Source: a virus
Taxonomy: Duplodnaviria; Caudoviricetes
Virus record (IMG/VR): IMGVR_UViG_3300032030_000007
Span: 1-64,000 of that record
DNA length: 64,000 nt
Strand: one strand, 5' to 3'
This document shows positions 4,196 to 56,790 of the stretch, piece by piece. The notes beneath the pieces are model-generated. The model was not told where the DNA came from. It saw nothing but the letters and a program-made list of their open reading frames with translations, and searched no databases. The stretch's first letter is position 1; each line of letters begins with the position of its first letter. The translations under genes and the position numbers were made by a program.

Positions 4196-4732
4196 ATGGA
4201 AAATAATGATGATTGGTTATTTGGTTTAGCATTAAGTTTATATTTACAAGATAAAATGGAAATATTTAAAGAAGATAACGAAAAGATTGAAAGTAAAGGT
4301 GTTTTATTTAAAGATTTTGTTAGACAGCATTTAAAAAAGGAAAACGAGTTAGAAAATGAAATTAAGCAATTAAAGTCAAGAATAAAATCAACATCAACAC
4401 CAATGTATAATCGTATGTATGAATTATTCGTACAGATGAGGAATTATATACATATAAGTGTAGATGCAGATGGATATAAGTTATCTATCGATAATTTTCC
4501 AATGTCTAATGATGACGCCAATTTTATTGAAAGACAAATAATGAGTGCAGATTATAATACTCATAATAAATTAGAATTAGGATCATTAAAGGATGCAGGC
4601 ATTTATTATGTTGATTCAGATAATAATAAGATATTTAACAAAAATAAATTATTTTCAACATCACAAAAATATGAATATTTTGATGTAAATGATTCAATTA
4701 AATTAAATTTGAAATCTATATTTGATTATTAA
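4196..4732 (+). CDS. Hypothetical protein (coiled-coil motif shared with next gene)
   Basis: ORF; KDFVRQHLKKENELENEIKQL. Confidence 0.7.
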   Translation: MENNDDWLFGLALSLYLQDKMEIFKEDNEKIESKGVLFKDFVRQHLKKENELENEIKQLKSRIKSTSTPMYNRMYELFVQMRNYIHISVDADGYKLSIDNFPMSNDDANFIERQIMSADYNTHNKLELGSLKDAGIYYVDSDNNKIFNKNKLFSTSQKYEYFDVNDSIKLNLKSIFDY

Positions 4733-46007: not shown

Positions 46008-46334
46008 TTAATAAGTTGCTTTAAAATCAATACCATTATTTGGAAGATACTTACAATACCAATAATTATATCCGTTGTCTTCAATATGTTTGTATACTTT
46101 AACTTTAGGATTATAGTCTAATTGTATGATAGATCCAATTTTTGGTTTATTTGGTGTCTTTTTAATAATCTGTTCATTAATGCATTCTTTTTCATAAACA
46201 AATATATCTTTATCATCAATTAAATATTCTGTAATATTATGACCAGATCTAATCAATTTAAGCATTCGTTGTGCTAAATCATTTTTATCTGTACCTAGCC
46301 AACTTAAAATCGTAGATTTTGTTATCATATTCAA
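46008..46334 (-). CDS. Hypothetical protein
   Basis: ORF. Confidence 0.6.
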   Translation of the reverse strand: MNMITKSTILSWLGTDKNDLAQRMLKLIRSGHNITEYLIDDKDIFVYEKECINEQIIKKTPNKPKIGSIIQLDYNPKVKVYKHIEDNGYNYWYCKYLPNNGIDFKATY

Positions 46335-47584
46335 TTAATATATTTTAATCCATCTTCACCAGGTTCTCCTTTTGGATCTCCATGGTTTAATGAGATAGGA
46401 ATATTCAGTTCATAACATGCATGATTGAACTCCTGATTATCTCCCATATGTTTTCCAAAATCATCAGAAATCTTAATTGTAAGATACCAAGACTGATTAG
46501 AATTCATACGGCAACGAGACATCTTCATAACGATATTCTCTGCATCATATTTTGTTCCATCAGGAGCATATACATCACATGTAAGATTTGTTCCAATTCC
46601 AAATGAACACTTGATTCCTCTTTCCTTACAATATTGTAAGATCTTAACAGCTTTTGGAAAATCAAGTGCATTAGAGAATACGATTGTTTTTGTATGATAA
46701 TCAATTCCTTTATTTATATAGAAATTAATTGTCTTATCAGTAAATTCATATTCATCTCCTGAATCCTGACGAACACCATCAAAAAGTTTAGCCTGTTTTA
46801 ATGAGAAGTTCTTGAAGAACACATCTGTTGTGTATGTATCTGAAAGAGCAATACCAAGATCTCCATCATATACATCTACCCAGTTTTCAAGAGCTATATA
46901 ATTTGCAGACTTATATCCATACTGAGCACCATGGAACATAAACCACTCGTGAGGGTGAGTACCAATTGGCTTCATATCATACTTCATTGCAAAATGTACG
47001 TTTGAAGTACCTACACAAGTCTTAGAATTTTGTTTCAAGTATTCACAAACCTTATCTTGAACTTCATAATTGAAACGGCGGCGTGTTCCAAATTCTGAAA
47101 ATAGCATTCCCATAGAATTCGCAAGATTAACCTTTGCTTCAAGCTTAGACATTGTAAGCTCCCAGTTAATAGGTTTATCTTCATTATTTACCTCAGGAAT
47201 AGCATACATACAAGGAATTTCATACAAAGAAGCCTTATAGCATTTATCTGTTACATCCATACAAAGTACACCTTCATCATCAAGATATACTCTAATCTTA
47301 TTAAATTCAAATCGGAATGAATACAACCACTCCCAATAATACTGTGCAATAAAATCTACCCTGTGTGAAGTAAGTAACCAATTAAGCTCAGGAATTGTAA
47401 GTTTAGTATTATTACAAATATCCCTAAGCATCATTTTAAACTTCTTCAGAAATTTTGGAGTACGTTTAATTTTATTCCTATCCTTAAATGTAAATGTACA
47501 TTCAGCATCAGGAAATTTCTTCATATAAGCATACGATGTAGTAAACTTATATAGATCTGTATCAAGTATTGAAAATTTCATCAT
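46331..47584 (-). CDS. pncB: Nicotinate phosphoribosyltransferase
   Basis: LDTDLYKF, EFGTRRRF, GTSNV, GTHPHEW, ALSDTY, GVRQDSGD, FGIGTNL, KISDD.GK. Confidence 0.95.
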   Translation of the reverse strand: MMKFSILDTDLYKFTTSYAYMKKFPDAECTFTFKDRNKIKRTPKFLKKFKMMLRDICNNTKLTIPELNWLLTSHRVDFIAQYYWEWLYSFRFEFNKIRVYLDDEGVLCMDVTDKCYKASLYEIPCMYAIPEVNNEDKPINWELTMSKLEAKVNLANSMGMLFSEFGTRRRFNYEVQDKVCEYLKQNSKTCVGTSNVHFAMKYDMKPIGTHPHEWFMFHGAQYGYKSANYIALENWVDVYDGDLGIALSDTYTTDVFFKNFSLKQAKLFDGVRQDSGDEYEFTDKTINFYINKGIDYHTKTIVFSNALDFPKAVKILQYCKERGIKCSFGIGTNLTCDVYAPDGTKYDAENIVMKMSRCRMNSNQSWYLTIKISDDFGKHMGDNQEFNHACYELNIPISLNHGDPKGEPGEDGLKYIN

Positions 47585-47589
47585 ATTAT

Positions 47590-47657
47590 TTAATATATAC
47601 TTTATGAATATTTAAAGCTTATTTTTATAGTTAATATATACTTTATGAATATTTAAA
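47590..47657. repeat. 27-bp direct repeat between pncA and pncB
   Basis: TTAATATATACTTTATGAATATTTAAA at 47590 and 47631. Confidence 0.8.
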
Positions 47658-48366
47658 TTGCTTTAATATTGTCATGAGAATTAATGAAATCATTAAGAGC
47701 AGTACCTCCATCAATTGAAACAGTTCCATTCATAAGAACACTTATATTGAACTTCTTCCAGTGATTCATAAGGTTCTTCATAGTTTCCATTACACAATAA
47801 TCACCAGCAATACCGCATACTACAATATTGTTATTGATAATTCTGCAACCTGAAGAAGATTCACAATTTGCAAAATAACAGTTCTTTACATGAGGTGGAT
47901 CATTAGGATGCAAGTGATGGAATGTTGCAAGATGCTCAAACGCGCCATACTCTTCACGGTCAACTACTGTACCCTTATCAACAACAGTAAATGGTATTCG
48001 CATTTCAATAAGACCATCATAAAGTTCTTTAGCAATCTTTTCGCCATCAGATCCCTGAACACAATGCGCAGGCCATTGACCACCATTTTCCTTAAATGAC
48101 ATATGTTTCTTTGGATGATGATCACGAGTCAAAATAACCTGGTTAATCTTATTGCGATTTGCTTTGATGTAATCCAAAATTGGCTTATTGATATTTTCTC
48201 CACCAGGTACATAAAGAGCTCCATTTGGATCACCAAAATCAAATTGGTCATCTACAATAATAACACTAATTTGATTATCCAATTTAGAACCAGTGTTCTT
48301 TACTTTAAACTTCTTTGCATTGTTCTTACGAACATCATTCTTAATGTTTTTCTTGTCTGTATACAT
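47653..48366 (-). CDS. pncA: Nicotinamidase (isochorismatase family)
   Basis: VDDQFDF, GALYVPGG, TRDHH, WPAHCVQGS, GIAGDYCV. Confidence 0.92.
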   Translation of the reverse strand: MYTDKKNIKNDVRKNNAKKFKVKNTGSKLDNQISVIIVDDQFDFGDPNGALYVPGGENINKPILDYIKANRNKINQVILTRDHHPKKHMSFKENGGQWPAHCVQGSDGEKIAKELYDGLIEMRIPFTVVDKGTVVDREEYGAFEHLATFHHLHPNDPPHVKNCYFANCESSSGCRIINNNIVVCGIAGDYCVMETMKNLMNHWKKFNISVLMNGTVSIDGGTALNDFINSHDNIKAI

Positions 48367-49163: not shown

Positions 49164-49193
49164 AAACAAAAAAGGTACGAATTAACGTACCTT
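49164..49193 (-). terminator. tmRNA terminator
   Basis: AAGGTACG-ttaatt-CGTACCTT plus T-run. Confidence 0.8.
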
Positions 49194-49199
49194 AAATTG

Positions 49200-49582
49200 T
49201 GGACCCAGACAGATTCGAACTGTCGTCTTAATAACCGTCATACTAAAACTTGTTACATGCTTCTTAGAAGTTTCTATCTTCAAAATATCTAGTTTCGTAC
49301 TATTCCAGAAAACCAGAAAACTTGGAGGTACACTTGAATTGAATAGCCAAAAGCTCCTTCCGCTATGTTTGTGAGACTTCTGTTGCCCGACCCGTAGGTT
49401 CTCACTGCGCCGGCTATGCTTATTTATAACCTAACTAATTAAAATAGTATCCCTGAGGGATTAAGCAGCCATCCTGTAGAAAGTATCTTCTTCAGCATTT
49501 ATTGTTTTTGATTCTTTAACGACATAATCAAGTCGACATGATTTTAATACTCAAATTACTAATCAAATACCAAAATGAGCCC
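49200..49582 (-). ncRNA. ssrA: tmRNA (383 nt), tag (A)AEEDTFYRMAA*
   Basis: Acceptor GGGCTCA/TGGGTCC-A with G3.U70; T arm GACAG-TTCGAAT-CTGTC; tag ORF 49496-49461 after AATAAAT ending in AA-stop. Confidence 0.9.
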
Positions 49583-50449
49583 TTATTTAAATAAAATTTT
49601 TCTTCCTTTTTTCCACCCTAAATTAATATAGTAATCTAAATTTTCTTTTTTAATTTTTTTATTAATTTTTTCTTCTAAATTATAAATCCAACATGTATTA
49701 AGTTGATTATTTGTTTTTCTATTTTTTGCAGCTATACTTAATTTTTGTTTATGTTCTTCAGAATGTTTGCGTCCTTTATGATAAGGTATAAATTCTCCAT
49801 TAATAATTAAAGGATCATCTTTATATAACATTTTAACGTTATTATAATTATCTTTATGCTTACATAATATTTTTCCTTTATTAAAAAATAATAATTCACC
49901 AGATATATATCTAGGATCATCTTTATTTACATAGAATTTATTTCCATTTTTATCAATAACACAAACTTTATTTTCAAATTGTTTTTTTAATTCACCAGTC
50001 TCAAATCTTTTATCATTATTTTTTACTAAATAATGATTATTATTTTTATCAACCGCTGGTGTTAATCCATAAGATAATGTTCGATATTCACCAGATATAT
50101 ATCTAGGATCATCTTTAGCCATTAAAATTTGTTCACCAGTAATTGTATTTCTAACAGGAAATAAACCAACTGTTTTTATACCACCTCCACCTAGTACTTC
50201 ATTATAACAATTATTATCCTTTATTAAAACTTCATTTACAATATCTTCTTCATAGTTTAAAGCTTCTTCTCTTGAATTAAAATATTTTAAAATTTCTTTA
50301 GAAAAATTTGAAATTCCATATTTTTTATAAGCTCTATGTAAACGATGACCAGAACCCATATATCCATCATTTAAATTATTAGTAGAATGAATTCCATAAT
50401 AAAAATGATTATTAATTAAATTTATAATTTTATAAAAATAATGATACAT
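49583..50449 (-). mobile_element. Free-standing GIY-YIG (Seg-like) homing endonuclease with NUMOD3-like motif
   Basis: YFYKIINLINNHFYYGIHST..DGYMGSG; KDDPRYISGE repeats; KGRKHSEEHKQKLS. Confidence 0.88.
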
Positions 50450-50515
50450 ATATAAATTATTAATTTAATTAATAATAATATTTATTCAAATAAAAATAAA
50501 TTTATTTAAGTAAAA

Positions 50516-50547
50516 TCAAATTACCAATCAAATACCAAAATAACCCC
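50516..50547 (-). repeat. Diverged duplicate of the tmRNA 5' end
   Basis: 29/32 identical to 49551-49582. Confidence 0.85.
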
Positions 50548-50612
50548 AATATATAAAGATCAATTTTAATAATTAAATATAGTTAATAATATTAATTTAA
50601 TTCAATATTGTT

Positions 50613-55405: not shown

Positions 55406-55506
55406 ATCTTTATATTTTATTTGTTTGATAATTTAATATAGATCATTATCAAAAAAATTCAAATATAATAAAAAAATGGAACTATAAATTAATCTAATTC
55501 TATTTG

Positions 55507-55577
55507 TAATCCCAATAGGAATCAAACCTATACCTATTCTTTAGGGGAGAATTATGCATTCATTACACCATAGGATC
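55507..55577 (-). tRNA. tRNA-Arg(CCT), somewhat degenerate
   Basis: GATCCTA/TGGGATT acceptor; ATTCT-CCCCTAA-AGAAT; T loop TTTGATT; C33 instead of U33. Confidence 0.65.
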
Positions 55578-55947
55578 ATACATCACCTCTTAATTTCAAT
55601 GTATTATATAACTCTTCGATATGATCAAATAAAGTTTTGTAATATCTTCCATAAGTAGTTTTCCAAAACCCATCTTTATCATATTCGTATCTTGTTATAT
55701 ATTCATAAAGATTTTCTCCTTTATTCAACAAATCATAATAATACTTAATATCTTTTATAGTCCAATATAGCATATCATAATTTCCGTGTTCTATTGGACG
55801 ATCCCACCCTTCAGTATGAAATAACAAAATATGTAAAGCATTTCTATATTTGTAAATACCACCACGTTGAATACCAAATTTTTTGCAATTACGATTTTTT
55901 GGTATTTTATTCCAACCAAATTTTCGTTTGTCTTTTAATGCTTTCAT
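55576..55947 (-). CDS. Hypothetical protein inside the tRNA array
   Basis: ORF. Confidence 0.6.
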   Translation of the reverse strand: MKALKDKRKFGWNKIPKNRNCKKFGIQRGGIYKYRNALHILLFHTEGWDRPIEHGNYDMLYWTIKDIKYYYDLLNKGENLYEYITRYEYDKDGFWKTTYGRYYKTLFDHIEELYNTLKLRGDV

Positions 55948-55971
55948 AAATTGAATATTTAAATATTTACG

Positions 55972-56054
55972 AGCTTATACTGAGAATCGAACTCAGATCT
56001 CCACCCAAGATGGTGTTCTCCATCGTCTGTGATTTACCATTAAACTATATAAGC
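55972..56054 (-). ncRNA. tRNA-like RNA with elongated non-canonical anticodon arm
   Basis: GCTTATA/TATAAGC acceptor, D and T arms intact; GATGG-AGAACA-CCATC in place of a normal anticodon arm. Confidence 0.7.
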
Positions 56055-56059
56055 ATATG

Positions 56060-56241
56060 TAGGGATGATGGGATTCGAACCCACGCTATGTTTAAGGTGG
56101 TACATAAAACGCGCTTCCTTACTCGAGTTTCACCTCTTTTCAGTGCTTCCGCAAACTTAACTCCTGGATTTCTCCTTCAAGACATTTTCCACCACGACAC
56201 TCGTTTTATCGCGCTCTGTCCAAGTTCTGAGCTACATCCCT
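56060..56241 (-). ncRNA. 182-nt tRNA-like RNA with ~105-nt insertion replacing the anticodon loop
   Basis: AGGGATG/CATCCCT-A, GCTC..GAGC D arm, GTGGG-TTCGAAT-CCCAT; insertion closed by ATAAAACG/CGTTTTAT. Confidence 0.75.
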
Positions 56242-56250
56242 ATATATAAG

Positions 56251-56326
56251 TGACCGCAGAGGGATTCGAACCCCCGACTTCTTCGTTCGTAGCGAAGTGC
56301 TCTAAAATCCACTGAACTATGCGGCC
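56251..56326 (-). tRNA. tRNA-Arg(ACG)
   Basis: Full cloverleaf; CTTCG-CTACGAA-CGAAG. Confidence 0.92.
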
Positions 56327-56333
56327 AATAATG

Positions 56334-56408
56334 TACTCCGGATGGGACTCCAACCCATGACCTGAATATTAGAAGTATCCTGCTCTATTGCAACTGAGCT
56401 ACCGGAGC
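56334..56408 (-). tRNA. tRNA-Arg(TCT)
   Basis: Full cloverleaf; GGATA-CTTCTAA-TATTC. Confidence 0.88.
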
Positions 56409-56415
56409 ATAATTG

Positions 56416-56491
56416 TGACCCTGGAGGGATTCGAACCCCCAACCTGAAGGGTAGAAGCCAACTGTTCTAAATTCCGTTGAACTACAGGGCC
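56416..56491 (-). tRNA. tRNA-Arg(TCT), anticodon stem with two U.U mismatches
   Basis: GTTGG-CTTCTAC-CCTTC; intact acceptor, D and T arms. Confidence 0.8.
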
Positions 56492-56635
56492 AAATGCGGC
56501 TACGCAATTTATTTTTACAAGGAGCCGTAACCTATCTCCTCAACCTTTATCCTTTGGCATCTGCAATTGCATTGTACACTACAATATACAAATAAAGCTT
56601 TAATTGAGAACCTTGCAAGTAACCTAATCAAGCAT

Positions 56636-56698
56636 TCAGTGGATTCGAACCAGCATCCCCTCTAACGGGAGGTATTTTACCCTTAAACTATCGTAGTC
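56636..56698 (-). pseudogene. tRNA core remnant lacking the adjacent 3' acceptor strand
   Basis: TAGTTTAAGGGTAAAA, CCTC-CCGTTA-GAGG, TGG-TTCGAAT-CCA. Confidence 0.5.
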
Positions 56699-56718
56699 TT
56701 TTTCGGCATCCTCAATTG

Positions 56719-56790
56719 TACCCCCGGTAGGATTCGAACCCACATCTTATGATCCGTAGTCACACGTTCTTTCCTTTGAACTACGGGGGT
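56719..56790 (-). tRNA. tRNA-Arg(ACG)
   Basis: Full cloverleaf; TGTGA-CTACGGA-TCATA. Confidence 0.92.

Follow-up and report, generated by a model that had tools for sequence, protein, structure and literature searches.

A Seg-like GIY-YIG endonuclease gene linked to the tmRNA gene of AT-rich phages, and the probable scar of its one-sided entry into a resident ssrA

The DNA analysed here, referred to below as the window, is a stretch of 64,000 nucleotides from a Caudoviricetes record in IMG/VR (IMGVR_UViG_3300032030_000007) and has a GC content of 27%. Because the contigs of its relatives reach 330-440 kb, the window was taken to be part of an AT-rich huge phage of gut or rumen metagenomes. 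At the locus studied, on the minus strand, a promoter region is followed by a 34-nt stump of a tmRNA gene, a leader, a GIY-YIG open reading frame (ORF), a complete tmRNA gene and a terminator. These features are given below, with related loci designated L010, L014 and so on.

50548..50605, minus strand: promoter region of the resident ssrA, with a sigma-70-like hexamer pair (50605-50576) and a conserved block up to G1
50514..50547, minus strand: stump, apparently the first 34 nt of an overwritten resident tmRNA gene of the GGGGTTA type, recognised by its identity to L010/L011
50450..50513, minus strand: leader of the endonuclease gene, in which a near-palindromic AT-rich motif occurs twice and which includes the 5' arm of a predicted start-codon hairpin
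49583..50449, minus strand: gene for a Seg-like GIY-YIG homing endonuclease of 288 aa, with its stop codon at 49583-49585
49197..49582, minus strand: functional-looking one-piece tmRNA gene (ssrA) of an endonuclease-linked haplotype (ARAGORN, Rfam)
49461..49496, minus strand: tag reading frame AEEDTFYRMAA plus stop codon (ARAGORN)
49201..49207, minus strand: 3' acceptor strand TGGGTCC, which fits the proximal 5' strand rather than the stump
49172..49193, minus strand: intrinsic terminator of the ssrA unit, its sequence kept in all relatives

An NAD salvage cluster adjoins the locus (window 46331-48366, and the genes downstream in L009) and is kept in the relatives; it contains an isochorismatase-family nicotinamidase-like gene, NAPRTase and NAD synthase. 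Five tRNAs were predicted by ARAGORN at 55506-56790 of the window, all of them tRNA-Arg (ACG twice, TCT twice and CCT), and Rfam gave one additional tRNA-like match at 55972-56054.

A single standard tmRNA was found by ARAGORN and Rfam (RF00023) at 49197/49199-49582 on the minus strand. The Rfam match covered the full model (model positions 1-374), with a score of 70.6 bits against a gathering threshold of 47 (E 1.9e-25). The tRNA-like domain was present, with an acceptor stem of 7 bp, a G3:U pair and a T arm, as was a tag ORF with a resume codon. No intron-form tmRNA was detected, the T arm being unbroken and the standard tmRNA model being the only match in the Rfam scan. The gene ends in ACAA (49197-49200), so CCA is not part of the gene and has to be attached once the 3' end has been processed. 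No match to the tmRNA was found by blastn among 50,697 phage records, and two DNA patterns scanned in IMG/VR returned tRNAs or nothing. No tmRNA was found on the nearest GenBank 'Bacteriophage sp.' contigs, which were reached via the NAPRTase gene.

A preliminary description of this DNA had reported that the first 32 nt of the tmRNA occur twice, with 3 mismatches, on either side of the GIY-YIG gene, that the stop codon of the endonuclease abuts G1 of the proximal copy, and that this copy alone pairs well with the 3' strand. All three observations were reproduced. The 32 nt at 49551-49582 are repeated at 50516-50547 with mismatches at positions 4, 6 and 23; no match to the repeat arose in 100 shuffles of the window, and its 26-nt core gave a blastn E value of 5e-6. 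Alignment to an allele lacking the endonuclease lengthens the distal copy to 34 nt (50514-50547). The two 5' ends lie 965 nt apart, the distal one behind the tmRNA promoter, and the TAA stop codon (49583-49585) directly touches G1 (49582). The proximal GGGCTCA is paired with TGGGTCC at 7/7 positions (G3:U included), whereas the distal GGGGTTA meets the same strand with a G.G clash at position 4; the cofold energies were -22.9 kcal/mol for the proximal and -17.4 kcal/mol for the distal strand. On these predicted pairings the stump is unable to act as an acceptor strand with the 3' end present in the window. Among the 18 alleles tabulated, the acceptor strands covary at 7/7 positions in 16, and at 6/7 in L016 and L059.

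Judged by its similarities, the 288-aa product of the ORF is a free-standing Seg-like GIY-YIG homing endonuclease. It matched phrog_314 ('homing endonuclease') with an E value of 1.6e-31, and tblastn retrieved annotated Seg-like endonucleases of T4-like phages with E values of 1e-17 to 1e-27. The Pfam matches were weak, both for GIY-YIG (17.4 bits, cut-off 22.6) and for NUMOD3, a C-terminal DNA-binding type (17.7 bits, cut-off 20.4). Residues of catalytic type (Y4/Y6, Y17-Y18-G19, R36, E73 and N83) were invariant across 11 aligned homologues. The family is large (1157 matches). The best matches bearing a name are labelled generic Seg or SegD/SegE, with an identity of about 34%. Members of the family share recurring 'DDPRYISGE' modules and a conserved motif at the C-terminus. 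In the window, the 'KDDPRYISGE' module is encoded by an exact 32-nt direct repeat (49894-49925 and 50086-50117); family members hold 2-5 such modules each, and the repeat is probably a DNA-binding unit of variable copy number.

The endonuclease ORF has its own leader and lies between the stump and G1, and no intron family was found around it in the Rfam scan. An integrase-type island in ssrA was considered and rejected, as no integrase was found, the GIY-YIG gene being the sole ORF in the 965-nt insert, and as it is the 5' end of the tmRNA gene that has been displaced.

The layout was found unchanged in a 77.6-kb JGI contig, and was matched by gene lengths and spacing alone in a 111-kb ENA contig and in a Logan contig. 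This recurrence in three collections makes an assembly artefact unlikely. One form of artefact would be a chimera of strains with and without the endonuclease, assembled through the common 5' sequence of their tmRNA genes, and both allele types do occur in samples with neighbouring JGI ids (Ga0247608, Ga0247609 and Ga0247611). Such a chimera is nevertheless very improbable: the parents share only 1-3 nt at the junction (50514), so that no k-mer path could have joined them, and the assemblies that agree in gene lengths and spacing come from different samples.

Loci lacking the endonuclease were reached via homologues of the upstream GT25-like glycosyltransferase gene, for which no relative was found in IMG/VR. 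The closest of these loci was L010, with an upstream glycosyltransferase of 96% amino acid identity. A relative in which the promoter leads directly into a GGGGTTA-type ssrA had been predicted, and L010 is exactly of this kind, with a window-like start of the intergenic region, then the promoter and then the tmRNA gene. The distal copy of the window is identical at 34/34 positions to nt 1-34 of the L010 and L011 tmRNAs. The 3' strand of L010, TAGCTCC, is complementary to its own GGGGTTA-type 5' end, and the same 5' end is partnered with TAACTCC in L011. A tmRNA of the GGGCTCA/TGGGTCC type also occurs in loci lacking the endonuclease (L012, L013 and L036). A pattern scan of metagenomes contributed about a dozen further alleles of this class, each with the promoter-proximal block up to G1. 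All of these alleles, at least 15 in number, carry a single copy of the tmRNA 5' end; both copies in a relative lacking the endonuclease, which would have spoken against an invasion of ssrA, were found in none.

The direct repeats flanking a single-gene insert might suggest that the insertion event itself duplicated the 5' end on the spot, by target-site or tandem duplication, and that the copies diverged afterwards. The comparison of alleles makes this origin highly improbable. The distal copy belongs to the L010/L011 type at every position, the acceptor strand of the proximal copy is the one found in L014, L012 and L036, and the 3' strand is a partner for the proximal type only. In addition, the right-hand 'repeat' runs on into an entire foreign tmRNA.

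The relatives also bear on the promoter that the preliminary description had placed before the distal copy. The motif (50576-50605) is a 9/12 match to a sigma-70-like promoter, and the motif alone was not above chance in the AT-rich window, where 15 such sites were found and 17.3 were expected. Its position is what supports it: the motif and the block up to G1 lie at the same position before tmRNA genes lacking the endonuclease, with the block immediately before G1 in L011, L012, L033, L036 and L045 and with its distal part identical in L010.

The contexts of endonuclease homologues of 93, 78, 75, 73, 72, 71 and 63% identity were then compared. In 7/7 haplotypes of at least 71% identity (the window included), a complete tmRNA gene follows the endonuclease gene at a distance of 0-43 nt, with gaps of 0 nt in L014, 4 nt in L059/60, 6 nt in L015-17, 11 nt in L068/70, and 43 nt in both L018-20 and L061-64. 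The 63% homologue is not located at a tmRNA gene. The six haplotypes outside the window occur in five different upstream contexts, and no second tmRNA 5' end was found upstream in any of them, the stump being present in the window alone. The normal place of this endonuclease lineage therefore appears to be before an intact tmRNA gene and not within one. Two side observations concern the genetic code of these relatives. In the endonuclease-bearing L059, a tRNA with the anticodon CTA, which reads TAG, lies at 4310-4381, a hint at reassignment of amber in part of these phages; and the endonuclease ORF of L018 was called with a TAG stop, so that its true end may lie elsewhere under an amber-reassigned code.

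The normal state is best seen by comparing L036, which lacks the endonuclease, with L014, which has it. These two loci have a common left flank (374/414 positions identical) that ends in a -35-like hexamer; on the right, each has a tmRNA of the GGGCTCA type, and the boundaries are clean. In L014 the cassette of leader and endonuclease stands in place of a promoter core of about 53 nt, from the -35 hexamer to G1. Read from the alignment, the step from L036 to L014 is a canonical insertion. Presence and absence of the endonuclease thus form a polymorphism at one locus, both in this pair and between L010 and the window.

The left junction in the window was mapped to the base by alignment with L010 and L014, and falls at 50514, nt 34 of the resident tmRNA. 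To the left of this base the window equals L010, and to the right it equals the L014 leader; leader and ORF together are 93.7% identical to L014. The bases immediately left of the cassette in L014/L036 resemble nt 25-34 of the resident tmRNA, at about 9 of 11 positions and with small gaps. Since the left flank of the recipient was different and only this similarity of about 10 nt to the donor flank was available, the left join would have fallen inside ssrA at nt 34. A join made at short similarity shows only that the break lay at or 3' of nt 34, and the end of the stump was accordingly downgraded as an indication of the cleavage site. The converse idea, that the bases before the L014 leader are themselves the remnant of a stump, was also rejected, as L036 has them as the end of its own ORF and its -35 region.

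The stump might also have been kept for a function, either as an uncleavable likeness of the homing site, bound by the endonuclease to repress its own transcription (compare the I-TevI operator), or, through its 3' end, as a -35-like element for a leader promoter. Its place between the old promoter and the leader would suit such a role, its end resembles the -35 region before the cassette in L014/L036, and the layout is stable across the further assemblies. The other endonuclease haplotypes manage without a stump, however, and the spacing to the candidate -10 element is 15 nt rather than 17. A functional stump was considered quite improbable.

The tmRNA downstream of the endonuclease proved to be a mosaic. 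In the tag module it shares 89-92% identity with L014, L016 and L059, three haplotypes that bear the endonuclease, compared with 40-64% for alleles lacking the endonuclease. The pseudoknot module is 77-78% identical to L016/L059 and 45% to L014/L012. The 3' acceptor strand matches the proximal 5' strand and is non-resident, and the 86 nt following the tmRNA gene are 98% like those of relatives lacking the endonuclease compared with 70% for L014. The L014 tmRNA itself turns L012-like beyond about nt 215. L014, at only 93% identity, is the nearest approximation of the donor that was found, and more than one recombination event is needed to account for the window tmRNA, a patchwork in which one T-stem pair is unique. 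Tracts of variable length would be the expected product of co-conversion during endonuclease-driven repair.

The AE..TFYRMAA type of tag was seen at endonuclease loci only; L018, L061 and L068, which also bear the endonuclease, carry other tags. The tags of the related phage tmRNAs in general are either short (10-11 aa, ending in YRMAA/YRLAA) or long (19-22 aa, 'VDEEWL..W.YRxAA'), and tag modules are shuffled among otherwise alike backbones (L010, L018, L022, L027, L053 and others).

These results allow the nature of the mobile unit to be reconsidered. According to the preliminary description, a free-standing endonuclease without an intron invaded ssrA and restored its function by carrying a diverged, possibly cleavage-resistant 5' end. 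The first part is supported by L010 and by the single-copy alleles; the wording 'replacement 5' end' proved too narrow. A unit consisting only of the endonuclease and a spare 5' end, inserted in ssrA near nt 34, would mirror the integrative islands that bear a replacement 3' end of a tRNA or tmRNA gene. It would explain why two 5' ends flank the gene and why the 3' strand fits the proximal one only, and the substitutions at nt 23 and 33 of the proximal copy are absent from its nearest alleles lacking the endonuclease. On the other hand, a homologous gene is present without a second 5' end in six other haplotypes, the 3' acceptor strand and the tag and pseudoknot modules are foreign as well, and the GGGCTCA/TGGGTCC type of tmRNA exists without the endonuclease (L012, L036). 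The two substitutions are likewise not exclusive, since A23 occurs in L022 and L048 and G33 in L044, all of which lack the endonuclease. The spare-end unit is therefore improbable, and a repair of ssrA by it is not supported.

Resistance of the carried 5' end to cleavage is plausible in itself. In the comparison of alleles, no sequence difference consistently separated those with from those without the endonuclease, and the comparison gave no position for the target. A23/G33 and the unique T-stem pair were tried as marks of immunity to cleavage and rejected, as neither sorts the alleles by presence of the endonuclease.

The leader (50450..50513) holds no ORF of at least 40 aa on either strand. 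It is near-identical to L014:2934-3000 and is conserved in six haplotypes, L015, L059, L018 and L061 among them. An AU-rich inverted repeat (window 50398-50486), also found in L014 and L018, encloses the start codon of the endonuclease. The z-scores of the fold were -2.1 in the window and -3.3 in L014, and less pronounced in L018, L059 and L015. The hairpin surpasses shuffled sequence to a moderate degree only, and not in every haplotype, and it is a weak prediction in DNA of 27% GC. If formed, it may hide the start codon when transcripts read through from upstream, recalling the translational control of endonuclease genes in T4. A near-palindromic AT-rich motif of 12-14 nt occurs twice in the leader (50480-50513), 20 nt apart, and again at the junction of stop codon and G1 (49583-49596). 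Three of the 7 matches to it in the whole 64-kb window lie at the locus, a marginal enrichment, and it could be a protein-binding or boundary motif.

No terminator-like site was found between the stump and the tmRNA gene, and there is no room for a promoter between stop codon and G1. The simplest reading is therefore that endonuclease and tmRNA are co-transcribed and that the tmRNA is released by RNase P cleavage at G1; such release is plausible for both the window and L014. The loci with a gap of 11 or 43 nt keep the promoter-proximal block.

Starting from the anatomy of the locus, its two parental allele types, the left junction, the canonical pair L036/L014, the conserved linkage and the mosaic tmRNA, all established at sequence level, it is considered likely that the window records intronless homing of a unit of endonuclease plus tmRNA, and that the stump is the scar of a one-sided, non-canonical invasion. 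An endonuclease lineage resident just 5' of the tmRNA gene in AT-rich huge phages would spread by intronless homing and carry adjoining tmRNA sequence along by co-conversion. During co-infection, the enzyme would cut the ssrA of a genome lacking the endonuclease, presumably at or 3' of nt 34, and repair from the endonuclease-bearing genome would copy the gene together with its tmRNA neighbour. The recipient of the window lineage would have been L010/L011-like, with the glycosyltransferase gene, the promoter and a GGGGTTA-type ssrA. As the left flank of the donor had no homology in this recipient, the right side would have been repaired by homology in or beyond ssrA, and the left end joined at the imperfect similarity of about 10 nt between nt 25-34 of the resident ssrA and the sequence left of the donor cassette. 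The outcome would be the old promoter and the 34-nt stump, followed by the leader, the endonuclease and a foreign tmRNA with matched acceptor strands, tag and pseudoknot modules. The tmRNA transcript would start from the old promoter, from the leader or from both, run through the endonuclease ORF and be cut by RNase P at G1.

An extension of this history, which as a whole is unlikely, would have the endonuclease lineage make itself hard to lose by capturing the expression of the tmRNA. With the promoter core of ssrA replaced in the canonical state, the tmRNA would be obtained only by read-through from the endonuclease gene and RNase P cleavage. Cleavage at the stop codon would leave an endonuclease mRNA that is close to non-stop, and the released tmRNA could police it. 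The stump of the window could in this case also be an uncleavable mimic of the homing site to which the enzyme binds, and every sweep of the element would swap the degradation-tag module of the phage.

For the preferred reading, intronless homing of endonuclease and tmRNA together, the nearest known case is SegB of phage T4, a GIY-YIG homing endonuclease encoded amid tRNA genes that recognises a T-arm motif and drives the inheritance of itself and of the surrounding tRNA genes, with loss of the recipient's markers (PMC2330249). Across phages, homologues of SegB show a significant co-localisation with tRNA genes (PMC13096335), and tmRNA is absent from both papers (PMC2330249; PMC13096335). Like SegB, the endonuclease of the window is a free-standing GIY-YIG protein encoded beside a structured RNA gene, is absent from close relatives and appears to be inherited together with the neighbouring RNA gene. 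Unlike in T4, the partner is a tmRNA, identity of the protein to T4-type Seg proteins reaches only about 34%, and in several haplotypes the endonuclease gene replaces the promoter of the RNA gene and touches its G1.

SegF, SegG and MobE show a presence/absence polymorphism at one locus, conversion tracts of variable length, and a leader of their own with a possible hairpin for translational control. These free-standing endonucleases of T-even phages are reviewed as agents of intronless homing with co-conversion (PMC2988022). The locus described here shares with them the polymorphism at one locus, the variable tracts in a conserved flanking gene and the separate leader, but theirs flank protein-coding genes. 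To our knowledge, a natural scar combining one-sided homology with a join at short similarity is undescribed for elements of the SegF/SegG/MobE type.

Three forms of tmRNA gene are recognised, namely standard, permuted and intron-containing, some of the last with LAGLIDADG endonuclease genes, and the intron is a group I intron in the T-loop (PMC11915505). The window resembles the intron form in that a homing endonuclease is associated with ssrA; it differs in having no intron, in the placement of the gene outside the mature RNA, and in the GIY-YIG rather than LAGLIDADG type of the enzyme. There are also genomic islands and prophages that sit in ssrA and bring a replacement 3' end with them. 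The gene has been named as an integration site (PMC11915505). As in these islands, a displaced ssrA fragment lies next to an element-borne copy that keeps the gene intact; unlike in them, there is no integrase, the insert measures only 965 nt, it is the 5' end that has been displaced, and the two copies are different alleles and not the identical repeats of att sites. In the Aeromonas phage Aeh1, mobE splits nrdA, and function is kept with both halves in use. The likeness to Aeh1 lies in a free-standing endonuclease gene within the footprint of a conserved gene, and the difference in the upstream fragment, which in the window is a dead stump with the whole gene downstream.

Full-text literature searches returned no description of a free-standing endonuclease tied to a phage tmRNA. 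The locus extends the theme of SegB and the tRNA genes, in which selfish nucleases ride conserved structured RNA genes, to the tmRNA of huge phages. It would also be a rare natural record of an endonuclease entering a genome with a mismatched flank, using homology to a conserved RNA gene on one side and a join at about 10 nt of similarity on the other. Since tag and pseudoknot modules are dragged along by the element, it could plausibly drive the modular diversity of these phage tmRNAs, in which tag length varies from 10 to 22 residues.
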